Shown: piece by piece, positions 3,189 through 40,133 of the stretch
How the letters are laid out: the number at the start of each line of letters is the position of its first letter
How positions within the stretch are numbered: position 1 is the first letter of the stretch
Virus record (IMG/VR): IMGVR_UViG_3300042914_003231
Coordinates: 1-64,000 of that record
DNA from: a virus
Lineage: Duplodnaviria > Heunggongvirae > Uroviricota > Caudoviricetes
Direction: 5' to 3' (one strand)
DNA: 64,000 bases
The notes under the pieces: generated by a model
Seen by the model: the letters and a program-made list of their open reading frames with translations, nothing else
Databases searched by the model: none
Told to the model about the DNA's origin: nothing
Program-made: the position numbers and the translations under genes

Positions 3189-3421
3189 TATGTTCTTTTT
3201 TTAATGCCGAACGCTATACCTATTTGTGAGGTATAGATGAATCGGTCTGATTGTTCTGTATCTATGTGTGCCCATGGTGGTACTATCTCCTTAACCAGAG
3301 TATCAAAGTCTGAGGGTTCCATAATAACCAACAGTCTAAGATTCTCTGGCATCGGGGATAGTCTATACACATGATGGGCAAACAATTCGATATCAGCTTG
3401 TGTTTTTAGGTTGTTTTCCAT
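3188..3421 (-). CDS. hypothetical protein, 77 aa
   Basis: ORF track. Confidence 0.6.
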   Translation of the reverse strand: MENNLKTQADIELFAHHVYRLSPMPENLRLLVIMEPSDFDTLVKEIVPPWAHIDTEQSDRFIYTSQIGIAFGIKKRT

Positions 3422-4755
3422 TAGAATGGTAATTCTGCAAAATCTGTTACTGGAGCCTTGTCTCCTAATGCACTTCTATAATCCAGTAAGTGCTGGGTGA
3501 TCATATCTCTCAATTCCTGTGGTGGATTGTGACCTTCTCTTCCATTACGGAAGCCTTGAAGTTGGTGCATGCGTAAGCTCTTACCTACTTCCAGAGTATA
3601 CCGGATATCCTTGTATACCATAGAGAATATACCACAGTCTCCATTGTTTATTCTGCTTGCATATGTTGCTACACAATGTTCTTGTTCAATACTTTCCTGA
3701 AGCAATCGCTTCTTGCTATCAACCTCTTCTACAGGTATAGCGAAGTCCTTGAACAGACCTTTGTAATTTTTGTGCATTTTCACATGCTTCACACCCTTTA
3801 AAATTCTTTCCCTGCTAAGCTTGCTGTGTTCATCTCGCATTCTCTTGTCTGAGGTGATCTTTAAGGAGAGCTTTTTGTCCAGCTCATAGTGGTCATTCAA
3901 CCAGTCTTCTACTAACCATGACAATTCATCCTTACCAAAGCACATCTCAGAGATGAGACAACCCAGACTATACTTACTTTTAGATCCTCCTGTAAGACCG
4001 TCTAAAAAAGATATGCGAGTCTCACGAGTCTCTTCAGCTTGTTTCTTTTCTTTTTCCAGGATAAACTGACAAACTCTGTTCATCTCTCCTGGATTCTGAA
4101 GTACTTTGCAAAGAACATCTAAACCCTTTATGCTTAACTTTTCAATAAGCAGTTTAGGTATCTTTACATTGTACATCTTCTCAATGACTTCAGCCTCATT
4201 TTTAGTGTTCATAAAGTTTCTGGTAAGAACTTTATCTAATACTGGCTGGTAGTCAATGTTAAGAACTGTTTTCAAGATCTGAGGACCATATGTATGAGGA
4301 ATGCGACCACCCTTCATTATTCTCGGGCCTCTGTATCTTCTGCTGGCTATGAACACATACAATTGTTTACTGTAACAAAAGATAGGATGGTTTTTCTTAA
4401 AAGGATAGAATCGGTTCTTTTTGTAAGCATAAGCATATCCATGCTCAAACTCGGCAATACTGATGCGATCTTTTTCTTTGTTGTAGAGTATAGAAAGAAC
4501 TGTTTTAACAGGCCTAGACCTATATCCATTGACTGCTTTCATGTATATCTCTGAGTCTGGTTCATGTTTCCAACCATGCTCTTTGAAATAGTTCTTACAG
4601 TACTCAATTGCTTTTAAGTTATCAGGAGAGGTCATGTCAAAGTAATAGGAGATGAATTGCTCATTCTCTATTACCTTAACCTCCCTTTCATCAGACTGTG
4701 GACGGTATAGATCCTTTACAGTCTCTATTATCCGGTTGAATATTTCTCTTTTCAT
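3421..4755 (-). CDS. PcfJ-like protein, 444 aa
   Basis: The C-terminal segment EQEHCVATYASRINNGDCGIFSMVYKDIRYTLEV...LQGFRNG resembles the PcfJ-family signature (HCV..Y...I..G). Assigned from memory, not searched. Confidence 0.55.
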   Translation of the reverse strand: MKREIFNRIIETVKDLYRPQSDEREVKVIENEQFISYYFDMTSPDNLKAIEYCKNYFKEHGWKHEPDSEIYMKAVNGYRSRPVKTVLSILYNKEKDRISIAEFEHGYAYAYKKNRFYPFKKNHPIFCYSKQLYVFIASRRYRGPRIMKGGRIPHTYGPQILKTVLNIDYQPVLDKVLTRNFMNTKNEAEVIEKMYNVKIPKLLIEKLSIKGLDVLCKVLQNPGEMNRVCQFILEKEKKQAEETRETRISFLDGLTGGSKSKYSLGCLISEMCFGKDELSWLVEDWLNDHYELDKKLSLKITSDKRMRDEHSKLSRERILKGVKHVKMHKNYKGLFKDFAIPVEEVDSKKRLLQESIEQEHCVATYASRINNGDCGIFSMVYKDIRYTLEVGKSLRMHQLQGFRNGREGHNPPQELRDMITQHLLDYRSALGDKAPVTDFAELPF

Positions 4756-5530: not shown

Positions 5531-6514
5531 TTATTTCATGTTGAACATTGCTGAAGTATTCCCACCCAACATGGTGGTAGGATACTTACCATCCCAGTTA
5601 GAAGCTCTGATGTAATCGATATACTGTTGGCTTAACTGTGCTTGCTTAAGCTTCATAGCCTTAGATTCTGCATCTGCTTCTACTAACATGGCTTGTGCTC
5701 TACCTGAAGCTGTAATAACGGCTTTGGCTGAATCACCTCTAGCTAGGGCAATCTTGGTTTTGGCTTGTGCATCTGCAACAATAGCCTTTTGTATTTCCCC
5801 TTGAGCTAGCTGTACAGCCTTAGTCTTTTCTTCGATCGCGTTTCTTAATGCTTCTGGTGGAACAATATTAGTTCTAAGCTGAGATATGACAAACCATTTA
5901 CTAGTCCTCTTATTACATTCTGTAACAATCTCTGCTTCAAACTGCTCTCTCTTATTAAAGATGTCATCTACAGACCATCTATTTGCCACATCATTTACTG
6001 ATCCCACAATAGCTGTCATTAACCATCCTTGTTCTATATCCTTCACTCCGAGTCTTAGAGCTTCAAACATATCTCCGACTGCATCTGCTTTTAAGGAATA
6101 GTTGAAGGTTGGTTTAATAACTGCTGAGAATCCTCCCTTTGTTATGACACCCTGATCACCATATTCAATATGTTGCTGGTAAGTAGGAAATTCATACAGT
6201 TTTTCTACCCATGTATTATAAGCTACCCAACCGGTTTTATACTGGTAGTCACTGACCCCGCGTTCATCACCTGATAGTTTAACTTTAATACCTACATGAC
6301 CAGCATCTACCCTCTCAAGGGTGTAAGGTTGAAATATGGCAACAAGCATACCTATAATGAGGATCAATAAAGGCTTAATTAGCCATGCCGGATTAGTTTT
6401 TTCAACCAAGTCATTGTACCGATCCTTAGTTTTGATTTTTGCATTTTCGCGGGTGCTAAATAGCATACCGATTACAAATAGGAGCACTGCTCCAAAAATT
6501 ATCCATGAAATCAT
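5531..6514 (-). CDS. SPFH/band-7 (prohibitin/HflC-like) membrane protein, 327 aa
   Basis: N-terminal TM segments, then VDAGHVGIKV... and an Ala/Gln/Lys-rich coiled tail (AIEEKTKAVQLAQGEIQKAIVADAQAKTKIALARG) typical of SPFH domains. Confidence 0.75.
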   Translation of the reverse strand: MISWIIFGAVLLFVIGMLFSTRENAKIKTKDRYNDLVEKTNPAWLIKPLLILIIGMLVAIFQPYTLERVDAGHVGIKVKLSGDERGVSDYQYKTGWVAYNTWVEKLYEFPTYQQHIEYGDQGVITKGGFSAVIKPTFNYSLKADAVGDMFEALRLGVKDIEQGWLMTAIVGSVNDVANRWSVDDIFNKREQFEAEIVTECNKRTSKWFVISQLRTNIVPPEALRNAIEEKTKAVQLAQGEIQKAIVADAQAKTKIALARGDSAKAVITASGRAQAMLVEADAESKAMKLKQAQLSQQYIDYIRASNWDGKYPTTMLGGNTSAMFNMK

Positions 6515-6729
6515 TTTTCTTCTTCTTTTTTAGGGTTATTAATGTTTAAAATTTTCTGTAGCAATCTTACTATATACCATACATAGGCTACAACCATGAT
6601 GATATAAATTACAGTAGCCATTGAAAATAGTGGTATTGGGAAAAGAGGCCTTGAGATAAGCTCAAAGTAACTATCACTTGCTCCTATTACTACCATAGTA
6701 ACAAACAGGAATATGATCAGATTCTTCAT
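6511..6729 (-). CDS. small membrane protein, 72 aa, translationally coupled to the SPFH gene
   Basis: Two to three hydrophobic segments; 4-nt overlaps on both sides. Confidence 0.6.
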   Translation of the reverse strand: MKNLIIFLFVTMVVIGASDSYFELISRPLFPIPLFSMATVIYIIMVVAYVWYIVRLLQKILNINNPKKEEEK

Positions 6730-7112
6730 TCTTTAGGTCCTCCCATTCCACCACCTCCTAGTATTCTTACTATTGGGTGGTTCATTTGAGATCTCATGTC
6801 AGAAATCACATACATTACATAAGCTAACTCATTTGCGTGCTTGCAGAATGTAGATGCTTCTACCATTGCTGCGGTCAGTTTATCAGTTGCTATGAATGCT
6901 TTTCTTGCATAAGACTCAAGTTCGATAAGCCTTTCTTCAGTGATACCTAGAGCCTCAAATATTTTCTCTGAGTCAGGATTGATACATTTAACATGAAGAT
7001 GTTCGGCCTTATCTACTGTACTTACATCCATCAATGTGATAGATACTTTTGTTCTTTTTACAGGAGCTTTTTTCTTTGCCGGAGCTTTTTTCTTTGTAGG
7101 TGTTTTTGCCAT
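6726..7112 (-). CDS. protein with a histone-H1-like basic N-terminus, 128 aa
   Basis: MAKTPTKKKAPAKKKAPVKRTK...; ends ILGGGGMGGPKE. Confidence 0.65.
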   Translation of the reverse strand: MAKTPTKKKAPAKKKAPVKRTKVSITLMDVSTVDKAEHLHVKCINPDSEKIFEALGITEERLIELESYARKAFIATDKLTAAMVEASTFCKHANELAYVMYVISDMRSQMNHPIVRILGGGGMGGPKE

Positions 7113-7122
7113 ACTAATGGAT

Positions 7123-7153
7123 TGTTTAAATGTTTAATGTTTAAATGTTTAAA
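7123..7153. repeat. tandem TGTTTAA(A) x4, 11-41 nt upstream of the 7112 start codon
   Basis: Read directly: tgtttaaa tgtttaa tgtttaaa tgtttaaa. Confidence 0.9.
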
Positions 7154-7225
7154 TAATAAAGTCACCCAGTAAAAGAACTGATATAGACTATGGTACTGTT
7201 AAAATTAAGGTCAAAGACCTTCCCT

Positions 7226-7671
7226 TGTTATAAAGGCAAAGGTGAAAACCAAGTCTTGTTTATACTATCACAAGGGCCAAGCCTCTACTCTCATAGGGCA
7301 AACAAAGGTCCTCTTAATGTGATAGAGTGATCCAATTATCTCCTTTCGGAGTAACCTGTTCACTGGTTGATACTTTTTATGAAAGCTCAAAAACAATAGG
7401 GGGTTTCACAAGGGAAGCGGTTGATGGGCACACCAGGTACCCGTTTAATTTAACATGATCCAAATTCATGTCTCCATTAGCAGTGGAGTGCTATTTTTCA
7501 GATAGCGAATAATAGTTTATATGTATAGTTCTTTTACCAAGCATAAAGATCTGCAGATATCAGCTTCTGCTTCTTCTACAGATCACCTTTAGGGGAGCTC
7601 TCCCAGCGTCACCTTCCTCACAGGACCGTATGCTTAACACTTAAGTTGGTAGGACTGGTAACAGGAGAGCA
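7226..7671. ncRNA. candidate structured RNA or long leader (ORF-free, GC-enriched)
   Basis: No ORF of 60 aa or more in six frames. Contains a UUUC-looped hairpin CTCC-TTTC-GGAG, long-range pairs ACTATCAC/GTGATAG and GCTCTCC/GGAGAGC, and the palindrome ATCTGCAGAT. No family recognised. Confidence 0.3.
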
Positions 7672-7718
7672 TAATAAAATGTGGGAGGGGCCGGGTCTTC
7701 GAAGCCCCTTTATCCCAC
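7672..7718 (-). terminator. terminator after 7728..8648
   Basis: Two-tier hairpin GTGGGA-GGGGC...GCCCC-TTTA-TCCCAC, followed on the minus strand by ATTTTATTA. Confidence 0.7.
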
Positions 7719-7727
7719 TAGAGTGTA

Positions 7728-8648
7728 TTAGACCTCAGGTTCTAGTCCTTTTAAGAACTGATCAATAGTTGCCTGAAATCTAGGATCGATCTGAATACGC
7801 ATTGCTGCAGTAGTCTTGATTTGCTCCTGGCGGTCAGCTTCGAATGACTCCTTCTCTACCTTAATGGCATCAGAGTATTCATCCATAGCTTTATTCCACT
7901 CATTACGCAACTTCTCATTGCGATTGTTCACCTCAGCTTGCTTTACAGCATTCTCTTTAGCAATGCGAGCATTCTCCTCAGTCACAAGGTTCTTAACCTT
8001 GGCTTTGTAGTAGTTCACGCGTTGCTCATACTTGCGGTGAAGAGTGGCTAAAGTCTCATGATGAGCTAATAACTCTTCAGATGTGTGATGTACTTCTACC
8101 TTAATAGGTGTGCGCTCTCCATCCTTGATAGTTATCCAATCAAGAGCTTTTACCTTAGGTAATTCTTTTCTCAAGCCATCCAATATGGAGTCCTTGTGAA
8201 TGAACTGACCGATGTGAGCAGCATATGCCTCTGCTTCTATATACTCTGCATATTCTGCAGAAGTAAGTTTGTCCCAGCCCCAGTCCTCACCAATAGCTTT
8301 TGCAGCAACAAACTTTTCATAGCTTGGTTGCTCTGGAGCATCTTTTGGTGCTACATAAGACTTCATTCTCAGTTCAATAAGAAGATGGTCTTTAGCCTTA
8401 ATGTTTACCATTAAGAAAGCCTGGGTTGCATGAAGTTTTGCTTTCTCTTGCAACAAGTCAGCAACATCCTTTGGCATAGGTTTACCTACCTCTTGAGTAT
8501 AGGTATCTCCACCAATTTTGAATGTCTTAGTAGCATTATTGATACCACTTAACTTGTTGTTGATCTCTAATGCGCGCTGGTAGCACAAGTTAGAAATACT
8601 TTGAGCCTGAGAAAGGCTTAATCCGGTTTTAGACAAATGATGTCTCAT
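7728..8648 (-). CDS. hypothetical protein with a coiled-coil C-terminus, 306 aa
   Basis: ORF track; family not recognised. Confidence 0.7.
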   Translation of the reverse strand: MRHHLSKTGLSLSQAQSISNLCYQRALEINNKLSGINNATKTFKIGGDTYTQEVGKPMPKDVADLLQEKAKLHATQAFLMVNIKAKDHLLIELRMKSYVAPKDAPEQPSYEKFVAAKAIGEDWGWDKLTSAEYAEYIEAEAYAAHIGQFIHKDSILDGLRKELPKVKALDWITIKDGERTPIKVEVHHTSEELLAHHETLATLHRKYEQRVNYYKAKVKNLVTEENARIAKENAVKQAEVNNRNEKLRNEWNKAMDEYSDAIKVEKESFEADRQEQIKTTAAMRIQIDPRFQATIDQFLKGLEPEV

Positions 8649-11858: not shown

Positions 11859-12171
11859 GGTTTATAGGTTTAAATGGTTATACAATAAGAGCTGAGTCAG
11901 CCTCGGTTAATATCTTTAAAGCTGTGGTGATCCTTTCCTACCTATATAAGGATATAGTAATAGGTATAGATATAGAGATAGTAGTATATAGGGTAATATC
12001 TTTAAGCAAGTAAACCTATTAGGTTTATTAGCTATATGGTGCACGCTCGCCTAAAGGGTGATTGAGGGCTTATTGATCATGGTATCAAAGTGTTGTAGGG
12101 AGTTCACCCCACCTCATGCACACTCTTTTCTTACACATTATCAACTAGTTAGCTGGTTTTTTGTTTGCTTT

Positions 12172-12420
12172 AGACCTGATGAGATCTATTCAACCGGTGT
12201 TATTCTCCCTATATATAGAGATAAGATAACCACCAAGTACTAAACCTGACACAACTATGCGAAGAAATATTCAAAGTGTTTGTCCTATATATAGGGAAAC
12301 ATCTACCAACTATACCATAGACCTGATAAGACTATGCGAAGACTATTTAAAAACACAGTAGATACCAAGAAAAGAAAAAGAAAAGGAACATAGGGATATT
12401 ACTCCCTATATTCCTCTGTC
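12172..12420. repeat. three degenerate tandem modules of about 70-77 bp (starts 12172, 12242, 12319), each with A(G/A)ACCTGA and a CCTATATATAG(G) core
   Basis: Exact 12-mer ACTATGCGAAGA at 12254 and 12331. CCTATATATAG at 12208 and 12284. TAGGGA/TCCCTA hairpin at 12391-12409. Confidence 0.8.
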
Positions 12421-12433
12421 CCCTCTTTATCTC

Positions 12434-14903: not shown

Positions 14904-14935
14904 TTTGCATAATTAAAAAAACTATATTATATTTG
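14904..14935 (+). promoter_or_regulatory. promoter: TTTG (-33) N20 TATATTTG (-7)
   Basis: TTTG at 14904-14907 and TATATTTG at 14928-14935. Same spacing as the promoter at 16511-16542. Confidence 0.6.
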
Positions 14936-15079: not shown

Positions 15080-15151
15080 GGACTCATAGCTCAGTAGGTA
15101 GAGCGCAGGACTGAAAATCCTGCCGCACTGGTTCGATTCCAGTTGAGTCCA
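15080..15151 (+). tRNA. tRNA-Phe (GAA)
   Basis: Acceptor GGACTCA/TGAGTCC; D GCTC/GAGC; anticodon arm CAGGA-CTGAAAA-TCCTG; T arm ACTGG-TTCGATT-CCAGT. Confidence 0.92.
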
Positions 15152-15156
15152 CACAA

Positions 15157-15239
15157 GCCGACACTGTAGAGTGGGAGATCTACACCAGACTGTAAATCTG
15201 GAGTCTTAGACTTTGGGAGTTCGAATCTCTCTGGCGGCA
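15157..15239 (+). tRNA. tRNA-Tyr (GTA), long variable arm
   Basis: Acceptor GCCGACA/TGGCGGC (one mismatch); arm CCAGA-CTGTAAA-TCTGG; T arm GGGAG-TTCGAAT-CTCTC. Confidence 0.85.
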
Positions 15240-15244
15240 CAAAA

Positions 15245-15330
15245 GGAAGGTTGGCAGAGCCTGGCCGATTGCACCAGTCTTGAAAACTGGAGGTCCCTTG
15301 GATCCGTGAGTTCGAATCTCACACCTTCCT
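15245..15330 (+). tRNA. tRNA-Ser (TGA)
   Basis: Acceptor GGAAGGT/ACCTTCC; arm CCAGT-CTTGAAA-ACTGG; long variable arm; T arm GTGAG-TTCGAAT-CTCAC. Confidence 0.9.
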
Positions 15331-15390
15331 CAACATGCATAGAAAAATGCACTTTTCTATACATGTTTTTTGAAAGTGCATAAAAACTAT

Positions 15391-15431
15391 ACATCTCTAG
15401 CTCAACTGGCGGAGCAGCGGTCTCCAAAACC
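15391..15431 (+). pseudogene. truncated tRNA-Trp-like 5' portion (acceptor 5' strand to anticodon loop only)
   Basis: D arm GCTC-AACTGGCG-GAGC and loop CTCCAAA. Shares the 13-mer GGTCTCCAAAACC with the intact tRNA-Trp (15419-15431 versus 15834-15846). No T arm and no 3' acceptor complement. Confidence 0.6.
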
Positions 15432-15464
15432 ATAAAGCAGTTTGGATACTGAAGTAAAAACATG

Positions 15465-15472
15465 TATATTTG
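15465..15472 (+). promoter_or_regulatory. -7 box TATATTTG, 3 nt before ATG 15476
   Basis: Matches TAnnTTTG. Confidence 0.45.
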
Positions 15473-15475
15473 TAC

Positions 15476-15817
15476 ATGCCTTCAAAAAATAAAGAAATAC
15501 TAAAAAAGCATAGAGATGCTTGGTATAAAAAGAATAAAAAAAAACAGATTACTAACCAGCTTGAAAAAAGACAGGAATTAAAGAAATGGTTTCAGGAATA
15601 TAAGAGATCATTATCTTGTAAAGAGTGTGGATTTAGCTTTGAATTATTTCCAGAATGTTGTGATTTCCATCACAGAGATGGAGATACAAAGAAAGATGTA
15701 GTAAGCAGATTGCTACCAATGGGAATAAAAGCACTAAAGAAAGAGATTGAAAAATGTGATCCTCTTTGTGCTAATTGTCATAGAAAGCTCCATGCAAAAT
15801 TAGAATATACAGGTTAG
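15476..15817 (+). CDS. HNH homing endonuclease (free-standing, inside the tRNA array)
   Basis: CKECG...CCDFHHRDGDTKKD...CDPLCANCHRKLH is an HNH/zinc-finger motif. The stop codon lies inside the tRNA-Trp 5' end. Confidence 0.8.
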   Translation: MPSKNKEILKKHRDAWYKKNKKKQITNQLEKRQELKKWFQEYKRSLSCKECGFSFELFPECCDFHHRDGDTKKDVVSRLLPMGIKALKKEIEKCDPLCANCHRKLHAKLEYTG

Positions 15818-15880
15818 CTTATTGGAAGCACCAGGTCTCCAAAACCTCGGATGGAAGGAGTTCGATTCTCTTAACCTGTG
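15809..15880 (+). tRNA. tRNA-Trp (CCA)
   Basis: Acceptor ACAGGTT/AACCTGT; D GCTT/AAGC; loop CTCCAAA; T arm AGGAG-TTCGATT-CTCTT. Confidence 0.85.
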
Positions 15881-15885
15881 CACAA

Positions 15886-15957
15886 GGTACCGTGGGTGAG
15901 GGGTTTAGCCTCAGGTCTGCAAAACCTGCTACGTCTGTTCGAATCAGACCGGTACCT
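15886..15957 (+). tRNA. tRNA-Cys (GCA)
   Basis: Acceptor GGTACCG/CGGTACC; arm CAGGT-CTGCAAA-ACCTG; T arm GTCTG-TTCGAAT-CAGAC. Confidence 0.92.
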
Positions 15958-15958
15958 C

Positions 15959-16174
15959 ATGAAAGAGATAGATGAAGAGTTCAACTTACTTCAGTTGTAC
16001 ATCTATGATTGCATCAACCGGATGTGTTTGAATGCATACATAGATAAGACTAAGTGTTCTCATCACCCTTTGTATACTTTTGAAGAATACAAAACGGCAA
16101 TATGGGATCCTTGGACTGGAGAGACTGTAGCAAGTAGAACAAGATGGGCTTTAAATATTAAGCCTTTATTTTAG
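15959..16174 (+). CDS. hypothetical protein, 71 aa, flush between tRNA-Cys and tRNA-Ser
   Basis: The ATG lies 2 nt after the tRNA-Cys discriminator. The stop TAG (16172-16174) overlaps the tRNA-Ser start (16173). The track ORF 15878.. was trimmed to the first ATG outside the tRNA. Confidence 0.5.
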   Translation: MKEIDEEFNLLQLYIYDCINRMCLNAYIDKTKCSHHPLYTFEEYKTAIWDPWTGETVASRTRWALNIKPLF

Positions 16175-16257
16175 AGAAGTGGCTGAGTGGCTTAAGGCAC
16201 CGCACTGCTAACGCGGAGGATGTAACAGTTCCACCGGTTCGAATCCGGTCTTCTCTG
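16173..16257 (+). tRNA. tRNA-Ser (GCT)
   Basis: Acceptor AGAGAAG/CTTCTCT; loop CTGCTAA; long variable arm; T arm ACCGG-TTCGAAT-CCGGT. Confidence 0.88.
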
Positions 16258-16262
16258 CAAAT

Positions 16263-16343
16263 GCCCATATGGTGGAATGGTAGACGCGCTGGTCTTAGGA
16301 ACCAGTACCGTAAGGTATGTAGGTTCGAGTCCTACTATGGGTA
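16263..16343 (+). tRNA. tRNA-Leu (TAG)
   Basis: Acceptor GCCCATA/TATGGGT; arm CTGGT-CTTAGGA-ACCAG; long variable arm; T arm GTAGG-TTCGAGT-CCTAC. Confidence 0.9.
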
Positions 16344-16348
16344 CATAT

Positions 16349-16431
16349 ACTCCTGTGGTGTAATTGGTAGCCGCGCTAGGCTTAAGACTCAGTGGACTTA
16401 GTCCGTGCCGGTTCGAGTCCGGCCAGGAGTA
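16349..16431 (+). tRNA. tRNA-Leu (TAA)
   Basis: Acceptor ACTCCTG/CAGGAGT; loop CTTAAGA (weak anticodon stem); variable stem GGACT/AGTCC; T arm GCCGG-TTCGAGT-CCGGC. Confidence 0.8.
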
Positions 16432-16474
16432 CTTTGCTCACCTGATTAATAAAGTGACCAAAAATTATTACACT

Positions 16475-16520
16475 GTCTACCAATCAGTTAGACCTTCTGA
16501 AGAAAATATTTTTGGTAGAC
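16475..16520 (+). other. 9-bp stem-loop at the end of tRNA block 1
   Basis: GTCTACCAA (16475-16483) pairs with TTGGTAGAC (16512-16520). The 3' arm overlaps the -33 TTTG of the next promoter. Confidence 0.5.
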
Positions 16521-16542
16521 TCAAACAAACCTATTATATTTG
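16511..16542 (+). promoter_or_regulatory. promoter: TTTG (-33) N20 TATATTTG (-7)
   Basis: TTTG at 16511-16514 and TATATTTG at 16535-16542. Confidence 0.6.
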
Positions 16543-16550
16543 TCTTGCAA

Positions 16551-16652
16551 ATGAAACGCATACAACATATCCAGATGGCCAATACAGGCAGAAATACGGT
16601 GGAGATTAAAGATCCGACCGTGTCCATGGGTGTTGCATGTAGTTTTAGATAA
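16551..16652 (+). CDS. leader ORF 2, 33 codons: MKRIQHIQMANTGRNTVEIKDPTVSMGVACSFR
   Basis: ATG lies 8 nt after the -7 box. Residues 2-24 use only the 14 amino acids served by the 16 downstream tRNAs, and all 14 occur. A terminator follows 28 nt after the stop. Confidence 0.5.
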   Translation: MKRIQHIQMANTGRNTVEIKDPTVSMGVACSFR

Positions 16653-16680
16653 GACATTTTTAGTTAGCTAAACCGCATTA

Positions 16681-16710
16681 AACCCCTGGACAAGTTCTAG
16701 GGGTTTTTTG
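16681..16710 (+). terminator. intrinsic terminator immediately before tRNA-Pro
   Basis: Stem (AA)CCCCTGG/CTAGGGG(TT) with a 7-nt loop and T6. Confidence 0.8.
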
Positions 16711-16718
16711 TTTTACCC

Positions 16719-16791
16719 CGGGATGTAGATCAGTTGGTAGATTGCGTGCTTTGGGAGCATGAGGTCGCAGGTTCGAGCCCTGTCATCCCGA
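16719..16791 (+). tRNA. tRNA-Pro (TGG)
   Basis: Acceptor CGGGATG/CATCCCG; arm CGTGC-TTTGGGA-GCATG; T arm GCAGG-TTCGAGC-CCTGT. Confidence 0.9.
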
Positions 16792-16847
16792 CTAGCAGAA
16801 GTGGTACTCCAGTGCCCGTACTGAAAACCAAACAAAACTGGAGACAT

Positions 16848-16920
16848 GGGGTTCAAGCACAAGCGGACGTGCATTAGCTTTGCAAGCTAGAGGATCTCGG
16901 TTCGAGGCCGAGGAGCTCCA
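16848..16920 (+). tRNA. tRNA-Ala (TGC)
   Basis: Acceptor GGGGTTC/GAGCTCC with a G3:U70 pair; D GCAC/GTGC; arm TTAGC-TTTGCAA-GCTAG; T arm CTCGG-TTCGAGG-CCGAG. Confidence 0.88.
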
Positions 16921-16921
16921 C

Positions 16922-17083
16922 ATGAATGAAGAACTATATAATTGGCTGGAGAAGATGTTTATGTTCTCCAATATCCCTAAGTACAGGAAGTACTTTAAGG
17001 AATGGGTGGACAACATAACTGAAGATCAGATCACCGGTTTTCAGAGAATGATGGGAGCCAACTATAAGATTAAGCAGGAATAG
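16922..17083 (+). CDS. hypothetical protein, 53 aa, flush between tRNA-Ala and tRNA-Gly
   Basis: The ATG lies 2 nt after the tRNA-Ala discriminator. The stop TAG (17081-17083) lies inside tRNA-Gly, which starts at 17074. Confidence 0.5.
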   Translation: MNEELYNWLEKMFMFSNIPKYRKYFKEWVDNITEDQITGFQRMMGANYKIKQE

Positions 17084-17148
17084 CTCATCCTTGGTAGAGC
17101 TCCAGTCTTCCAAACTGGAGGTGGCGAGTTCGAGCCTCGCTTCCTGCT
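17074..17148 (+). tRNA. tRNA-Gly (TCC)
   Basis: Acceptor GCAGGAA/TTCCTGC; arm CCAGT-CTTCCAA-ACTGG; T arm GCGAG-TTCGAGC-CTCGC. Confidence 0.92.
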
Positions 17149-17331
17149 CACAACTGCAGTGCCCATGTACAGTGGGGGTACAATCACTGCAGGTAGAAGA
17201 GTGCTAAGAAATCCGGTGTTGGGTTAGCTCTGGACACTAAGGTAAGGAGTGGGTAAGGACCACAGTCCCCGTCTAACAGGGACAAAGTTTTGCAAAAGCC
17301 TTCCCTGGGATGGAGCACTCTTCATGATATT
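17149..17331 (+). ncRNA. structured non-tRNA spacer RNA (unknown family)
   Basis: 8-bp hairpin CTGCAGTG/CACTGCAG (17154-17192). 10-bp long-range helix GAAGAGTGCT (17196-17205) with AGCACTCTTC (17314-17323). Inner hairpin GTCCC...GGGAC. GC-enriched; no cloverleaf. Confidence 0.4.
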
Positions 17332-17407
17332 GGTCTGTTAGGGGAGTCCGGCCGTCCCTACCTCACTGTCTATGAGGGGATCACGGGTTCGAATCCCGTA
17401 CAGACCG
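17332..17407 (+). tRNA. tRNA-Asp (GTC)
   Basis: Acceptor GGTCTGT/ACAGACC; arm CCTCA-CTGTCTA-TGAGG; T arm ACGGG-TTCGAAT-CCCGT. Position 37 is an unusual T. Confidence 0.78.
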
Positions 17408-17518
17408 CTGGGCGGTAGTCTAATGAGCAGGGTTAGTAGCGTGCTGACTAACTAGTCTTAGGACGATCATCTTATGGGATGATAGATATCAGTAACCATT
17501 CTGATCTGCCCCACCAAT
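17408..17518 (+). ncRNA. second structured non-tRNA spacer (unknown)
   Basis: Hairpins ATCATC-ttatgg-GATGAT and ATCAG-taaccatt-CTGAT; ends ...CTGCCCCACCA; repeated TAGTCT(A/T)A. Confidence 0.3.
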
Positions 17519-17590
17519 TGCCCCTTAGCTCAGCGGTAGAGCAAAACCCTGTTAAGGTTGAGGTCCTAGGTTCAATCCCTAGAGGGGCAG
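17519..17590 (+). tRNA. tRNA-Asn (GTT)
   Basis: Acceptor TGCCCCT/AGGGGCA; loop CTGTTAA; T arm CTAGG-TTCAATC-CCTAG. Confidence 0.9.
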
Positions 17591-17595
17591 CAAAT

Positions 17596-17670
17596 AGACG
17601 AGTAGCTCAGCCTGGTTAGAGCGCCCGCCTGATACGCGGAGGGTCACAGGTTCAAATCCTGTCTTGTCTA
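17596..17670 (+). tRNA. tRNA-Ile (GAT)
   Basis: Acceptor AGACGAG/CTTGTCT; loop CTGATAC; T arm ACAGG-TTCAAAT-CCTGT. Confidence 0.88.
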
Positions 17671-17727
17671 CTTTGGGACCGTTTGGTAGTGACATAGTCT
17701 TGAACTAGATCATAGAAACTATCACAT

Positions 17728-17800
17728 AGGAGTATAGCTCAGTTGGGAGAGCATCCGGTTTACATCCGGACGGTCCAAGGTTCGAGTCCTTGTATTCCTA
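17728..17800 (+). tRNA. tRNA-Val (TAC)
   Basis: Acceptor AGGAGTA/TATTCCT; arm TCCGG-TTTACAT-CCGGA; T arm CAAGG-TTCGAGT-CCTTG. Confidence 0.9.
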
Positions 17801-17884
17801 CAAACTTTAAAGATTTAAACTTATAATGTTTACACTATTAAAATATAAGGTTATAAAGAGAAGGATAAAACCTTAACTCATTAT

Positions 17885-17956
17885 TCCCTCATAGCTTAGT
17901 GGTAAAGCAGTATACTTTTAATATACGGAGCGGCAGTTCGATTCTGCCTGGGGGAA
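17885..17956 (+). tRNA. tRNA-Lys (TTT)
   Basis: Acceptor TCCCTCA/TGGGGGA; arm GTATA-CTTTTAA-TATAC; T arm GGCAG-TTCGATT-CTGCC. Confidence 0.9.
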
Positions 17957-17962
17957 CTTTAA

Positions 17963-18034
17963 ACCCCCGTAGCTCAATGGAAGAGTAAGAGACTTCTAAG
18001 CTCAAGGTTACCAGTTCGAGTCTGGTCGGGGGTT
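17963..18034 (+). tRNA. tRNA-Arg (TCT)
   Basis: Acceptor ACCCCCG/CGGGGGT; loop CTTCTAA (short GAG/CTC stem); T arm ACCAG-TTCGAGT-CTGGT. Confidence 0.82.
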
Positions 18035-18040
18035 CTGAAT

Positions 18041-18114
18041 AGGCCCTTAGCTCAGTTGGTTAGAGCAGTACTCTTATAAGGTAAAGGTCACCGGTTCAAA
18101 CCCGGTAGGGCCTA
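18041..18114 (+). tRNA. tRNA-Ile (TAT), reads ATA
   Basis: Acceptor AGGCCCT/AGGGCCT; loop CTTATAA; T arm ACCGG-TTCAAAC-CCGGT. Confidence 0.85.
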
Positions 18115-18124
18115 CATAATATTT

Positions 18125-18199
18125 AGCGGGGTGACTGGAGTTGGTTCCAGCACAGCCTCATAAACTGTACAGACGCGGGTTCGAGTCCCGCCCCCGCTA
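18125..18199 (+). tRNA. tRNA-Met (CAT), elongator-like
   Basis: Acceptor AGCGGGG/CCCCGCT; loop CTCATAA; T arm GCGGG-TTCGAGT-CCCGC. No 3xG:C initiator signature in the anticodon stem. Confidence 0.85.
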
Positions 18200-18265
18200 C
18201 AATGAGTGCTAATGACACCTGATAAAGGAGGGGATATATTACCAGGTCCCCCGACACTCAGTAAC

Positions 18266-18337
18266 GCTCCCATCATCTAGGGGTCAGGATATCAGGTTTT
18301 CGACCTGAGCACCAGGGTTCGAATCCCTGTGGGAGTA
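18266..18337 (+). tRNA. tRNA-Glu (TTC)
   Basis: Acceptor GCTCCCA/TGGGAGT; arm TCAGG-TTTTCGA-CCTGA; T arm CAGGG-TTCGAAT-CCCTG. Confidence 0.9.
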
Positions 18338-18342
18338 CTTAA

Positions 18343-18415
18343 GCTTGAGTAGCACAATTGGTAGTGCACCTCCCTTGTAAGGAGAAGGTTGTCAGTTCGA
18401 GTCTGACCTCAAGCT
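18343..18415 (+). tRNA. tRNA-Thr (TGT)
   Basis: Acceptor GCTTGAG/CTCAAGC; D GCAC/GTGC; loop CTTGTAA; T arm GTCAG-TTCGAGT-CTGAC. Confidence 0.9.
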
Positions 18416-18417
18416 CT

Positions 18418-18491
18418 GTGTCTGTAGAGGAATTGGTAGACTCCCCGGAATGTGGATCCGGTGCTTGTGGGTTCAAGTCCCATCAGACACC
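18418..18491 (+). tRNA. tRNA-His (GTG)
   Basis: Acceptor GTGTCTG/CAGACAC; arm CCGGA-ATGTGGA-TCCGG; T arm GTGGG-TTCAAGT-CCCAT. The only tRNA followed by an encoded CCA. Base -1 is T, not G. Confidence 0.88.
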
Positions 18492-18497
18492 CCATTA

Positions 18498-18571
18498 GTT
18501 CTCATAGCTCAATTGGATAGAGTCCTTGACTACGGATCAAGAGGTTGAAGGTTCGACTCCTTCTGAGAACA
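18498..18571 (+). tRNA. tRNA-Arg (ACG)
   Basis: Acceptor GTTCTCA/TGAGAAC; arm CTTGA-CTACGGA-TCAAG; T arm GAAGG-TTCGACT-CCTTC. Confidence 0.92.
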
Positions 18572-18576
18572 CATAA

Positions 18577-18647
18577 TGCCCTTTCGTCTAACGGCAGGAC
18601 CTGTGGTTTTGGGCCACATGATCGAGGTTCGAATCCTTGAGGGGCAA
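18577..18647 (+). tRNA. tRNA-Gln (TTG)
   Basis: Acceptor TGCCCTT/AGGGGCA; arm TGTGG-TTTTGGG-CCACA; T arm CGAGG-TTCGAAT-CCTTG. Followed by a T-run. Confidence 0.9.
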
Positions 18648-18680
18648 CTAGTTTTTTATTGTTTGCACATCCAAAGTTTT

Positions 18681-31232: not shown

Positions 31233-31442
31233 ATGGATGCATTATATGACTGGTTGTTTCATTACAACCCACACACAAAATCATGGGCAGCTTTTAGAAG
31301 AGAGCACATGCAAAATTACTTTAATGGTGATCATGAGAATGTAGTAAAAAGCAAGTCTCAAAAAACTTTAGAAGAGCTTATCATTTCTAATGAGGGAGAT
31401 CTTGAAAGAATTCATAAATTTGTAAGTAAGCTAAAAAGCTAA
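31233..31442 (+). CDS. hypothetical protein, 69 aa
   Basis: ORF track. Confidence 0.55.
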   Translation: MDALYDWLFHYNPHTKSWAAFRREHMQNYFNGDHENVVKSKSQKTLEELIISNEGDLERIHKFVSKLKS

Positions 31443-33649
31443 TGAATTCTTTTTTCTATACTGACATACCTACCTGGGATAATGGTGAATGGAAAACCAC
31501 CAGCTTTGGCAGCCATGAAGATTTTCGGGTCTTCATAAAAAGTGTGTTCAAAGAACCCGGTAAGTATGAGTTTGATGAGACTTCAAAACTATTTAATGCT
31601 GAGGCCACTAAGTGGAATCAACAAAAGTTTTATTGTGCTGCCCCTAGGAATACTAAGGACTACATTCTTTATTGGGATGATCAAAAAGCTAAGTGTAGAA
31701 AAGGAGTTATTTTCACCCAGAAAGGAAAGACTTGGTTTCTCCCGCGCGAGTACTACATGTGGTTGAATTTCCTACCTATCAACAACAAAGAGAAAAGATT
31801 ATTTTCTTTCCCGGATATAAGAGATGCTCAGTATCACATGGCCTTGTATAATCTATTGGCTGAGTTATTCTACAAGCATTCTGCTATCCTTAAAAAACGT
31901 CAGATAGCCTCTTCTTACTATCATGCCGCCAAACTAATCAACTACTTATGGTTTGAAGAAACTCCTATCTTAAAAATGGGAGCTTCTCTAAAAGCTTATG
32001 TATTGGATACCTGGAGATTTGTAGTAGAGTACAAGAACTTTTTGGATGAACACACAGCATGGTACCGTGATATGAATCCTAAAAAACCTTTGGATTGGCA
32101 GCAACAAGTTGAGACTGAGATTCCAGGTACCACCAGAAAGATCTTAAAAGGTTTAAAGGGAGTTCTTAAAGGAACTTCTTTTGAACAAGAACCTACGGCA
32201 GGTGTAGGTGGACCTTGTACCTACTTCTTCCATGAAGAAGCTGGTGTAGCTCCTGATATGATGGAGACTTTTGGTTACATGAAACCCGCCTTAAAATCAG
32301 GTATGATCACAACTGGTACATTTATTGCTGCAGGATCTGTAGGTGACTTAGATCAGTGTGAGCCATTACGCGAGATGATCATGAGACCCGATGCCAATGA
32401 TATTTATCCTGTAACCACTAATCTTCTTGATGATAGAGGTACAGTTGGTGAATCAGGTCTTTTTATTCCTGAGCAATGGTCGATGCCTCCTTGTATAGAT
32501 GAGTTTGGAAACTCACTTGTAGAGGATGCATTAAAAATGCTGGATGATTACTTTGCCGATCTTAAGAAAAAGCTTTCTCCAGAATCATACCAGTTAGAAG
32601 TATCTCAGCATCCGCGTAACATTGAAGAAGCTTTTGCAGCCAGAACTGTTTCAATATTCCCTACTCACTTGGTTGCTTCTCAAAAGAGAAGAATCTTGGA
32701 TAAAGAATATAGCATAGAGTATGTAGATCTTGCAAGAGGAGTTGATGGTAAATGGTTGGTGGATAAATCTAAGAAAATACCTATTTCAGAGTTCCCTGTT
32801 AGCAAAGCCACAGAAGATAAAACAGGAGTAATTTGTGTATATGAAAGACCTGATCCTAAAGCTGAGTGGGGTACATACTATGCTTCTATTGACCCGGTCG
32901 CTCAAGGTAAGACAAATACTTCAGAATCTCTATGCTCTATTTATGTTTACAAAATTCCTATTGAAGTAACAAGAATCGATGGTGAAGAAGTGAAAACTTA
33001 CATAGAAGAGGATAAGATTGTTTGTTCTTGGACTGGCCGATTTGATGATATAAACAAAACCTACAAGAGACTAGAAGATATCATTGAGTGGTACAATGCA
33101 TGGACTTTAATAGAAAACAACGTACCTGGTTTCATCACCTACATGATCAGTAAGAGAAAACAAAAGTATCTGGTACCAAAAAGTCAGGTAACCTTCCGTA
33201 AAGATGTGGAGTATGTGCAACATGGTCCAGAAGAATATGGTTGGAGAAACACCGGTACTCTTTTCAAGACTTACATCCTACCTTACCTGGTAGACTATTG
33301 TAAAGAAGAAATAGATGTTATCAAAAAACAGGACAGCGAAGATATTGTAAAGATCAAGTATGGTATTGAGAGGATTCCGGATATCATGGCCATGAAAGAA
33401 ATGGAGATGTATAGAGAAGGGTTGAACGTTGACCGCTTGACAGCTCTGGGAGCTTTAATTGCTTTTGCTAAAGTGCAGGAAGCTAACAGAGGTATACGAA
33501 AAAGGATAGACCGGACAACAGATAAGAAACAGTTGCAAAAGTCAGAAAAAATCAGTACATTTACTAATAGTCCCTTTAGACATATTGGAATGAATAACGG
33601 GTCATCAGGAAAAAGACCTCCTAGAAACCCTTTTAAAAATATACGATGA
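31442..33649 (+). CDS. terL: terminase large subunit, 735 aa
   Basis: Walker-B-like TYFFHEEAG; NIEEAFAAR; nuclease motifs YYASIDPVAQGK and TLIENNVPG; precedes the portal gene. The classical GxxxxGK[ST] P-loop is not obvious (candidates KKRQIASS and QKGKT). Confidence 0.82.
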   Translation: MNSFFYTDIPTWDNGEWKTTSFGSHEDFRVFIKSVFKEPGKYEFDETSKLFNAEATKWNQQKFYCAAPRNTKDYILYWDDQKAKCRKGVIFTQKGKTWFLPREYYMWLNFLPINNKEKRLFSFPDIRDAQYHMALYNLLAELFYKHSAILKKRQIASSYYHAAKLINYLWFEETPILKMGASLKAYVLDTWRFVVEYKNFLDEHTAWYRDMNPKKPLDWQQQVETEIPGTTRKILKGLKGVLKGTSFEQEPTAGVGGPCTYFFHEEAGVAPDMMETFGYMKPALKSGMITTGTFIAAGSVGDLDQCEPLREMIMRPDANDIYPVTTNLLDDRGTVGESGLFIPEQWSMPPCIDEFGNSLVEDALKMLDDYFADLKKKLSPESYQLEVSQHPRNIEEAFAARTVSIFPTHLVASQKRRILDKEYSIEYVDLARGVDGKWLVDKSKKIPISEFPVSKATEDKTGVICVYERPDPKAEWGTYYASIDPVAQGKTNTSESLCSIYVYKIPIEVTRIDGEEVKTYIEEDKIVCSWTGRFDDINKTYKRLEDIIEWYNAWTLIENNVPGFITYMISKRKQKYLVPKSQVTFRKDVEYVQHGPEEYGWRNTGTLFKTYILPYLVDYCKEEIDVIKKQDSEDIVKIKYGIERIPDIMAMKEMEMYREGLNVDRLTALGALIAFAKVQEANRGIRKRIDRTTDKKQLQKSEKISTFTNSPFRHIGMNNGSSGKRPPRNPFKNIR

Positions 33650-38507: not shown

Positions 38508-40133
38508 ATGGCAACTCCAGTATTAAACAATGGTATATTCTTGCGCGACACGAATTACCATGCTACATCACATGTAGACAGTTATCACCTTCAGAACATG
38601 TTAAAAGATGCTGAACCAATGGATATGGGACCGGTAGATATTTGGGCAATGACTCAAAAGGTAGAAATGCCTCTTTACCAGTTATCATCTTTTGGTGGTA
38701 AAAATATCATCATGGTTGATAATGTCCGTGGTGAATATAAATGGCAAACTCCTGTATCACAGGATTTACCTTACATTATTGAGGACATCGAGCCTACAAA
38801 CTTAGCTAAAGGTCAGGATGGCACAACCTTCCGTATCAAGATTAACAAGCGTGAGTTTGGTCATGGTGATATCATCACTTATGACAAATACAATGGTGTC
38901 GAGTTATACATTACTGCTGATGATATCTTACCTATGGGTGACGGTTTCATCTACACTGTGCAGTTGGTAAACAATGACAACTACAAATTCTTAGACAACA
39001 AGTATTTAGTTCCTCAAACCAAATTATTCCGTAAAGGTTCTGCCCGCGGTGAGTATGGAGAAAGATTCTCTGACATCCAAACTCGCTCTGGCTTCCGTGA
39101 GTTCTACAACTTCGTAGGAGGAGCAGAAGCACATGTTCACTACTCTATCAGCTCTCGTGCTGACTTACAAATCAAGGGTGGTATGAATGCAGATGGTACA
39201 GTTCCTGTAACTGAGATCTGGAGAAACTTTGATAAACAATTAGACCCTTCAATCAGTAAGATCGAAGACATCGCTTCAAAGATGGGTAAAGACTACTTGA
39301 AGCGTGCAGTGGGTAATGGTACCTTAACCCGTACCTTCTTAACCTCTATGGAGGCTGCTCACTTAACTAAGATTTCTACTGACATTGAGACCTATTTAAT
39401 GTGGGGTCATGGTGGACGCGTTAAGCAAGATGGACCAGATGACATCCGTATGTCAGTGGGTCTATGGAAACAGCTTGACAACTCTTACAAGCGCGTATAC
39501 AACAAGTCAAGCTTTAGCTTAGAATTGTTCCGTGCTGAGTTATACAACTTCTATGCAGGTCGTGTTGAGTTCCAAGGTCCGGATCCAAAACGCTCATTGA
39601 TTGTACAAACAGGTATGGGTGGTATGCGCTTAGTAAATGAGGCTATCAAGCGTGAAGCTGTAAACTCAGGTTTAGTTATCCAAGCTGCTAGCAACAATGG
39701 TATTGGTGCTATCACAGGTCAAGGTATGGACTTAAACTATGGCTTTGCATTCACAAGCTATGTAATTCCATTCTTAGCAAATGTTAAGTTTGTGTTAAAC
39801 CCTGCGTTTGACAACTTACATACTAATGACATTGAGAACCCAATCATTGATGGTAACCCATTATCATCATACAGCTTTGTGATCTTCGACATCACAGACA
39901 CTGGTAACGACAACATCTACATGTTGAAGTTATCTTGGGATAACCAATTAAAATGGTGGTACCAGAATGGTACAATGGACTACATGGGACGTACCCAAGG
40001 CTTCCAGTCTTCTGGACAGTTTAACGGTTACCGTGTATACATGAGCCAAACTATGCCAGCTATCTGGGTGAAAGACCCTACCAAAGTGTTGAAGATTGTT
40101 ATGCGCAATCCGATCACTGGTGGTTCTTTCTAA
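38508..40133 (+). CDS. major capsid protein, 541 aa
   Basis: Position after the scaffold gene; codon usage shifts to CGT, G/C-ending codons; a GC-rich stem-loop follows. Confidence 0.65.
   Translation: MATPVLNNGIFLRDTNYHATSHVDSYHLQNMLKDAEPMDMGPVDIWAMTQKVEMPLYQLSSFGGKNIIMVDNVRGEYKWQTPVSQDLPYIIEDIEPTNLAKGQDGTTFRIKINKREFGHGDIITYDKYNGVELYITADDILPMGDGFIYTVQLVNNDNYKFLDNKYLVPQTKLFRKGSARGEYGERFSDIQTRSGFREFYNFVGGAEAHVHYSISSRADLQIKGGMNADGTVPVTEIWRNFDKQLDPSISKIEDIASKMGKDYLKRAVGNGTLTRTFLTSMEAAHLTKISTDIETYLMWGHGGRVKQDGPDDIRMSVGLWKQLDNSYKRVYNKSSFSLELFRAELYNFYAGRVEFQGPDPKRSLIVQTGMGGMRLVNEAIKREAVNSGLVIQAASNNGIGAITGQGMDLNYGFAFTSYVIPFLANVKFVLNPAFDNLHTNDIENPIIDGNPLSSYSFVIFDITDTGNDNIYMLKLSWDNQLKWWYQNGTMDYMGRTQGFQSSGQFNGYRVYMSQTMPAIWVKDPTKVLKIVMRNPITGGSF

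Follow-up and report, generated by a model that had tools for sequence, protein, structure and literature searches.

A family of large structured RNAs encoded beside gene p306 in uncultured phages

The spacer between p306 and p128

The sequence analysed here (the window) comprises 64,000 nucleotides (nt) of a tailed phage, positions 1 to 64,000 of IMG/VR record IMGVR_UViG_3300042914_003231, with genes for a terminase (31442-33649), a portal protein (34280-37048) and a capsid protein (38508-40133). Two of its minus-strand genes, p306 and p128, are separated by a spacer at 7113-7727 which a first-pass annotation, made from the letters alone, had proposed to be either an independent structured RNA gene or a long regulated leader. 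Within this spacer, the minus strand of 7152-7592 encodes one member of a hitherto uncatalogued family of RNAs, which are large (approximately 290-440 nt) and elaborately folded. That the minus strand carries a structured RNA, and that this RNA is tied to p306, is close to certain.

The general description of the spacer was largely accurate. The list of open reading frames (ORFs) contains none of 60 amino acids or more in any frame, although the longest are somewhat longer than the roughly 30 codons estimated by eye (46 amino acids on the plus strand and 42 amino acids, from a TTG start, on the minus strand). The region is hairpin-dense in that it folds better than its dinucleotide shuffles (z = -3.8 for the minus strand and -4.3 for the plus strand). 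Its G+C enrichment is present but slight, at 0.395 versus 0.367 for the window; the conserved RNA itself stands at 0.375, and the excess is due almost entirely to a 135-nt insert at 7593-7727. The tight gene packing reported for the rest of the window is not uniform, as another ORF-poor stretch is found at about 11859-12433.

Distribution, fold and conserved blocks

Loci surrounding p306 homologs were fetched from metagenomes (80 loci), from IMG/VR (80 loci) and from contigs of metagenome-assembled genomes (MAGs; 5 contigs), and an nhmmer profile was seeded from the window spacer and then iterated, yielding an element of about 325 columns. The element was detected in 76 of the 76 metagenome loci having downstream sequence, and in all of the IMG/VR and MAG loci with enough sequence, as one copy each on the p306 strand. 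Altogether, more than 230 loci, from metagenomes and from IMG/VR phages of up to 373 kb, have exactly one copy downstream of a p306 homolog. The concern that the region might be absent from relatives is thereby answered, the element being present in every relative with enough sequence. In the window itself, the match covers 7152-7589 (E = 5.6e-49) and is the sole copy in 64 kb.

A scan of IMG/VR that was independent of p306, using a DNA pattern taken from the 3' block of the RNA itself, yielded 80 loci with p306 as well, 7 RNA matches whose upstream side is cut by the end of the contig, and 6 chance matches with neither the RNA nor p306; every RNA-only case was a contig-end truncation. Scanning viral contigs with a 17-mer gave for the most part chance loci (L002-L019), again with neither RNA nor p306. 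Gene and RNA are closely spaced: of 74 loci, 63 have the start of the RNA between -2 and +11 nt relative to the p306 stop codon. The gap is instead 200-790 nt in about 15% of loci, in some cases with an ORF or a hairpin inside it, and the RNA is retained. In one close relative a 187-amino-acid ORF (L023:4069-4632) sits between p306 and the RNA, indicating that the pair tolerates insertions.

The fold of the element was derived from a MAFFT alignment of 47 non-redundant copies (alignment A3), for which the RNAalifold prediction has 42 pairs, with compensatory changes in 39. Five helices were counted: the outermost helix P0 (4 pairs), which closes the RNA, the hairpin P1 (10 pairs in a variable stem) with its cap P1b (2 pairs), and the long-range helices P2 (15 pairs) and P3 (10 pairs). 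Standard pairs occupy 95.7% of the alignment cells of P0-P3, versus 45-55% in controls whose 3' partners were shifted by 1-3 columns, and changes on both sides of a pair number 586 cells versus 81-123 in these controls; none of 500 shuffles reached any of the observed pairing measures. Comparative alignment, as the first-pass annotation had recommended, yielded strong covariation, in more than 70 distinct relatives, and its suggestion of a structured RNA is strongly supported. Alignment A3 also contains 194 G-U pairs and only 24 A-C or C-A combinations. The latter are what G-U pairs of the opposite strand would give, so the folded molecule is the p306-sense strand, which is the minus strand of the window.

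When six diverse copies were folded singly by minimum energy, P1, P2 and P3 formed in all six, most also had P0, and the shorter forms had a P5-like helix. In a MAFFT alignment of the central domain, covariation is also seen for P5, in which GUUAGACAG pairs with UUGGCUAAC and an A-G mismatch recurs. The window and its close kin with the longer "type B" form of the RNA were left out of the 42 relatives from which a covariance model (R1; 137 positions, 33 pairs) was built. R1 matches 73 of 74 sources, and its sole significant match in the 64 kb of the window is 7212-7420 on the minus strand (52.1 bits, E = 8.6e-11). In the R1 alignment of 72 distinct sequences, all 10 pairs of P3 covary, P5 is 91-98% paired and covarying, and P4b is 81% paired, with one of its pairs divided between C-G (28) and U-A (27). 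R1 placed the 3' strand of P5 of the window in the extra arm of the type B form, for which the placement by local folding is preferred.

The resulting architecture has its 5' and 3' ends paired, through P0 and a P2 of 15-16 bp, with the conserved hairpin P1 lying between P0 and P2. Inside this closure lies a rod composed of P3, P4, P5 and P6, flanked by two blocks of UUUGAY-like hexamer repeats that are conserved and apparently unpaired. The window has the features that define the family, namely helices P0, P1, P2, P3 and P5 with compensatory changes, the CCGC and GGUCUUUG motifs, and a position on the same strand downstream of a p306 homolog (Table 1).

The association extends to a distant p306 subfamily (E = 1e-27 to 1e-37 against the profile), represented by three IMG/VR loci, two of which have downstream sequence. 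Both of these (L278 and L280) have an ORF-free gap after p306, within which R1 finds matches of 28.5 and 37.2 bits, respectively. Their folds preserve the P0/P1/P2 layout with helix sequences that are wholly unrelated, and in L278 a canonical terminator lies three bases past P0. The RNA is thus also found in a branch with only about 25-30% identity in p306.

Conservation within the element is highest in two places, immediately before the 3' strand of P3 (CUUAGU UUUUGn CUUUGC CUUUGn) and immediately after it (GGUCUUUGAY nUUGAU UUUGAU UUUGnC UUAGUC UAU). The second block, with the family consensus GUCUUUGAYnUUGAUUUUGAUUUUGnCUUAGUCUAUAU, is the most conserved noncoding block by blastn, and no pairing partner for it was found. 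The sequence CUAU (7183-7186 in the window) is nearly invariant, being present in 95-96% of 84 relatives. Position 2 of the hexamer is U in 88-94% of the 84 copies, and position 4 is G or A.

Several features singled out by the first-pass annotation must be redrawn against this element. The terminator reported at 7672-7718 does exist as a hairpin and a U-run, a G+C-rich hairpin (7681-7718) being directly followed by AUUUUAUUAU at 7671-7680 in the folds, as in intrinsic terminators, but it belongs to the window-specific insert and lies outside the conserved RNA. It was not listed by a consensus terminator scan because its loop is 10 nt long. Neither the rest of the window nor the loci fetched up to that point contained another copy of the insert. 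The closest relatives (L020-L026) have different hairpins in its place. The hairpin AAGGTC-ttt-GACCTT (7208-7220) is also present in the window, but it is not conserved and its reading as a second terminator fails: the 3' arm varies in relatives (GATATT, GACATG and others), RNAalifold retains a single pair, and the 5' arm is part of P3. The sequence so read consists of the P3 3' strand together with a conserved block that is apparently single-stranded. The TGTTTAA repeat is recovered by a tandem-repeat finder as 4.1 copies of TGTTTAAA at 7123-7154, outside the conserved RNA, and is the A/T-rich leader, lacking a Shine-Dalgarno sequence, of the next gene, resembling other leaders in this phage. 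The main idea of the annotation was right, and its boundaries, its two "terminators" as such and its repeat fall outside the conserved element.

Table 1. Features of the p306-p128 region in window coordinates
Feature	Position	Strand	Evidence
p306, 306-amino-acid gene	7728..8648	-	ORF
Window-specific G+C-rich insert (G+C 0.52) between p306 stop and RNA	7593..7727	-	folds
Terminator-like hairpin of the insert, with U-run at 7671-7680	7681-7718	-	folds
Second hairpin of the insert, 74 nt	7597-7670	-	folds
Conserved structured RNA, long "type B" form, ~440 nt	7152..7592	-	nhmmer, covariation, G-U/A-C count
P0 5' strand (UAAAG), pairs with 7157-7161	7587..7591	-	91% paired, 3 of 4 pairs covary
P1 hairpin: 10-bp variable stem, internal loop, P1b	7548..7584	-	helices 2 and 3: 94% and 100% paired; 12 of 12 pairs covary
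P1b, with conserved C-ANAA-G loop on top	7569-7571 with 7562-7564	-	fold and covariation
P2 5' strand, long-range closing helix with 7164-7179	7527..7542	-	15 pairs, all covary, 95.9% paired
Variable region, four local hairpins; length and sequence differ among relatives	7426..7506	-	A3 columns 69-222, window fold; no covariation claimed
Conserved CCGC, then P3 5' strand (CUUCCCUUGU), pairs with 7219-7228	7408..7420	-	97.8% (A3) and 98.8% (R1 alignment) paired
P4 5' side and type B local hairpin (7367-7390)	7367..7407	-	single-sequence folds; P4 weakly supported
P5 (GUGAACAG with UUGGAUCAC), conserved GUUAC + AUAA internal loop, terminal hairpin P6	7326..7364	-	P5 covaries; coordinates from fold
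Extra arm, only in window and closest relatives (type B)	7265..7325	-	A3, fold
First hexamer block (CUUGGU UUUCAC CUUUGC CUUUAU); first half is P4 3' strand	7230..7253	-	conserved block, covariance-model alignment
P3 3' strand (ACAAGGGAAG)	7219..7228	-	covariation, fold, covariance-model alignment
Second hexamer block, apparently single-stranded; contains AAGGTC-ttt-GACCTT	7181..7218	-	position table
P2 3' strand (7164-7179) and P0 3' strand (7157-7161), forming the RNA 3' end	7157..7179	-	covariation, fold
A/T-rich leader without Shine-Dalgarno sequence, TGTTTAAA x 4; outside conserved RNA, not conserved in relatives	7113..7154	-	
p128, downstream gene, not conserved beside the RNA in relatives	6726..7112	-	

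Gene neighbourhood, host type and expression signals

The p306 family is large, with 2354 homologs in the protein collection that form 698 clusters at 50% identity. Within 3 kb to either side, it is the sole ORF family found in all 58 non-redundant loci, every other family being present in at most 7. For p128, tblastn gave only three weak matches (29-35% identity) among about 80 loci, located 0.7-2.5 kb past the p306 gene, and no relative was found in viral contigs. As p306 is the only ORF family common to the loci and p128 is not kept beside the RNA, p306 and the RNA form a conserved two-part island in a hypervariable region. Searches of Pfam, PHROGs, NCBIfam, PADLOC and PDB sequences returned nothing informative for p306. 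Its AlphaFold model (predicted local distance difference test score 86) is built of helix, beta-hairpin and long-helix units, and the only structures that it matches are generic helical bundles. The start of p128 contains an 18-nt tandem repeat (7052-7100), which encodes a lysine-rich KKKAPAKKKAPV.

A Shine-Dalgarno sequence is present at none of the 34 gene starts in the window, and the leaders are A/C-rich. The window also contains 24 transfer RNA (tRNA) genes at 15080-18648, an array with three canonical Bacteroidota promoters (TTTG-N19-21-TATATTTG) on the plus strand, at 14904-14935, 15441-15472 and 16511-16542. Together, these promoters and the absent Shine-Dalgarno sequences point to a Bacteroidota-type host. 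The terminase has 24% identity to those of crAss-like phages of Bacteroides and Flavobacterium, a distant match. Among 50,697 records of cultured phages only the terminase gave matches, and neither the locus DNA (in near and distant searches) nor the p306 protein had any. Most of the relatives stem from metagenomes of lakes and sediments, and IMG/VR contigs of 200-373 kb are among them. The carriers are uncultured, crAss-related giant phages of freshwater Bacteroidota-type hosts.

Neighbouring early genes in the window encode an SPFH/Band 7 protein (5531-6514) and a PcfJ-like protein (3421-4755). These genes are not kept beside p306 in relatives, with the exception of L055, in which an SPFH homolog lies just upstream of p306. 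The ORF-poor stretch at 11859-12433 belongs to a minus-strand block, is repeat-rich and has a fold z of -2.7. It contains CCCTATATATAG(G) palindromes, with a perfect inverted pair at 12206-12218 and 12285-12297 plus further copies, and three copies of TAGACCTGATnAGA at 12171, 12241 and 12318, and it may be an operator array or an origin.

The distribution of promoter boxes and terminators bears on how the RNA may be made. The host-type promoter has TTTG at -33 and TAnnTTTG at -7, as in the tRNA promoters of this phage. No TAnnTTTG box is present on either strand of 7113-7727, and such boxes are rare upstream of the RNA (5 within 200 nt, among 147 relatives). One is found within 150 nt upstream of p306 in 53 of the 147 relatives, at a distance of 25-75 nt, and some of these have the full TTTG-N19-TATATTTG. 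Of the proposed independent structured RNA gene, the structured RNA is borne out and the independence is left unsupported, no host-type promoter lying ahead of the RNA in the window.

A terminator-like hairpin with a U-run is located 15-35 nt past the RNA in 36 of 153 relatives (24%), versus 4 of 148 coding controls. Of 155 relatives, 12 have a same-strand tRNA gene within 60 nt past the RNA and a further 22 have one within 1 kb; same-strand tRNAs are nearby in 78 of the 155 related loci. In several relatives (L062, L049, L071, L076 and others) a tRNA starts only 1-39 nt past the RNA, some of them at 1-6 nt; in L062 (tRNA at 1798-1868) the distance is one base, and in the L076 group a terminator separates the RNA from a tRNA-Arg. 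The copy in L062 (1473-1797) is of the shorter type A, about 320 nt long. The window departs from the usual pattern, as its terminator-like hairpin precedes the RNA and none follows; its tRNA array is 7.5 kb from the RNA on the opposite strand.

These observations suggest a unit with the order promoter, p306, RNA, and then a terminator or tRNAs. Because there is no promoter box before the RNA, and about a third of p306 genes have a -7 box upstream, the RNA would be made as the tail of the p306 transcript, and would thereafter persist as a discrete, stable molecule. Termination, or else tRNA and duplex processing, would release its paired ends, and the 3' end would be fixed by a terminator close by or by the processing of a neighbouring tRNA. 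The molecule would act in trans rather than as a leader. The hexamer repeats might provide a binding platform for an oligomeric protein, for which p306 is the obvious candidate, and p306 and the RNA might together be an RNA-protein module used early in infection.

Possible roles and relation to known RNAs

The reading that is favoured overall, by a modest degree, is that of a new RNA family in which the tail of the p306 transcript becomes a discrete, trans-acting RNA, perhaps as a module bound by p306. That the RNA is discrete and not a leader is moderately supported, since the downstream genes are variable, terminators follow the RNA in about a quarter of relatives, and tRNA genes are nearby. 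That it works with p306 through the hexamer repeats is a guess, and a doubtful one. It is similarly speculative that p306 and the RNA constitute a new phage ribonucleoprotein, in which the hexamer blocks, held in register by P3, serve as a periodic landing pad for oligomeric p306, and that this particle, or else an RNA-only assembly of the ROOL/GOLLD kind, acts on host translation or the tRNA machinery during takeover by giant Bacteroidota phages.

A number of observations weigh against this overall reading. The p306 protein is near neutral (isoelectric point 6.85), family and fold searches recognised no RNA-binding fold in it, and only genomic evidence links it to the RNA. For the hexamer blocks, a role at the level of DNA is conceivable. 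In the window, a strong terminator-like hairpin stands between p306 and the RNA with no promoter box after it, so that synthesis of the RNA there needs read-through or an unrecognised promoter. Helix P4 is 72-77% paired with little covariation in the R1 alignment, and is plausible but short of established. An extension of P2 (AUAUA-A-ACUAU with AUAGU-C-UAUAU), although predicted by minimum energy, was rejected, its mean z being -0.58 versus shuffles over 47 relatives. Finally, the ends of the RNA, its stability and any action in trans are matters that we infer.

Other explanations can be weighed with the same evidence. The RNA might be a cis-acting element of the 3' untranslated or intergenic region of the p306 transcript, with no function in trans: a stabiliser or timer of the mRNA, a device coupling the end of translation to folding (P0 adjoins the stop codon or overlaps it), or a control of polymerase read-through into the variable genes. 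Its start at the p306 stop codon in most loci, its invariable position on the p306 strand and its want of a promoter of its own would all fit such a role. The long inserts that separate gene and RNA without its loss do not, nor does the terminator after it in some relatives, and the size and number of its covarying helices go far beyond known stabilisers or antiterminator RNAs; this explanation is considered rather unlikely. A long regulated leader or riboswitch for the downstream gene is largely refuted. The RNA does lie upstream of p128 on the same strand, with conserved unpaired blocks reminiscent of an aptamer core, but p128 is not kept behind it, the downstream genes vary from locus to locus, many relatives have terminators or tRNA genes after it, and no Rfam riboswitch matches, all of which disfavours the leader that the first-pass annotation had offered as its second option.

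It is also very improbable that the conserved unit is an element of the DNA by p306, such as a replication origin, an array of protein-binding sites or a promoter. The nine direct hexamer repeats and their A/T-rich flank are iteron-like, and TTGAC...TAGTCT could be taken for a promoter, with the sigma-70-like match TTGACC-16-CATAGT. However, helices that covary across the element with a strong asymmetry between G-U and A-C would not arise from double-stranded DNA. The sigma-70 candidate was rejected: the host-type promoter is TTTG...TAnnTTTG, of which the spacer has none, relatives do not keep the putative -10 positions, and the window contains the motif only once. Least probable is a decayed gene or a small unannotated protein gene. 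One frame of the hexamer block reads VFDxDFDFxLVY and is open across the block in most relatives, giving a conserved-looking peptide, but an in-frame ATG is absent in 72 of 84 copies, a stop codon lies two codons upstream in 36 of 84, and a 1-bp change in the length of P3 shifts the frame between the two blocks. Conservation has a period of 6 and not 3 (lag 6 = +0.13, lag 3 = -0.27), no conserved ORF family maps to the region, and the small ORFs of the spacer match no Pfam or PHROG family. A coding reading of the block and of the small ORFs was accordingly rejected, which also speaks against a pseudogene.

Large RNAs with many covarying helices are rare, and those that are understood are ribozymes, riboswitch-like sensors or the cores of RNA-protein machines. 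The most conserved feature of the hypervariable early region in these phages is a noncoding RNA. To our knowledge, GOLLD and ROOL are still without a known function despite solved structures, and the present family brings a new fold, from another, very abundant group of phages. If the ribonucleoprotein reading is true, the family would constitute a third, protein-linked class of enigmatic large phage RNAs near tRNA islands.

Comparison with catalogued RNAs returned no relative. A cmscan of the window against Rfam 15 at the gathering score detected tRNAs only, the spacer gave two chance matches at E <= 10, eight relatives gave nothing over the element at E <= 1, and ARAGORN found no transfer-messenger RNA (tmRNA) in the window. 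Identity with RNase P, 6S or tmRNA was rejected, as no model matches, and group I and II introns and the T-box likewise gave no match. Because of these results, the element is placed outside the GOLLD, ROOL, OLE, 6S, RNase P and riboswitch families, and the membership of GOLLD or ROOL raised by the first-pass annotation is not borne out by any covariance-model match. No description of the RNA was encountered in the literature searched, although a catalogue published in 2023, which lists over 10,000 short candidate RNAs of IMG/VR origin, could contain fragments of it (PMC10690425).

In outline, the RNA resembles 6S RNA, including 6S-Flavo, in being rod-like with a long closing helix, central conserved unpaired strands and a terminal arm. 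However, it is about twice the size and matches no 6S model, and its unpaired block is a hexamer repeat and not a mimic of the open promoter. The tRNA cluster of phage T4 includes RNAs C and D, which are of unknown function, are made with the tRNAs and are released by tRNA-processing enzymes. The relatives in which a tRNA starts within a few nucleotides of the new RNA recall this arrangement, whereas RNAs C and D are much smaller and unrelated, and in the window the tRNA array is distant and on the other strand.

GOLLD and ROOL are large, ornate RNAs of unknown function from phages and prophages, often found near tRNA islands (PMC12286853). The window phage and the related loci share this setting, and the new RNA is likewise phage-encoded, multi-helical and strongly covarying, and often adjoins same-strand tRNA genes in relatives. 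It differs from ROOL and GOLLD (RF03087 and RF01998) in its distinct helix layout, in its smaller size (about 290-440 nt, compared with GOLLD members that are often more than 800 nt), and in its hosts, which are Bacteroidota-type here and Firmicutes or Actinobacteria there. Its strict linkage to a single protein gene also sets it apart from ROOL, for which no protein partner is known, and this fixed partner gene provides a direct experimental handle.

OLE RNA is a large structured RNA whose function depends on adjacently encoded proteins. It is bacterial and has no sequence or model similarity to the new RNA, and its partners are membrane-associated proteins to which p306 has no predicted relation. 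Nevertheless, the p306-RNA pair displays the same kind of fixed synteny between gene and RNA that is seen for OLE and its Oap partners.

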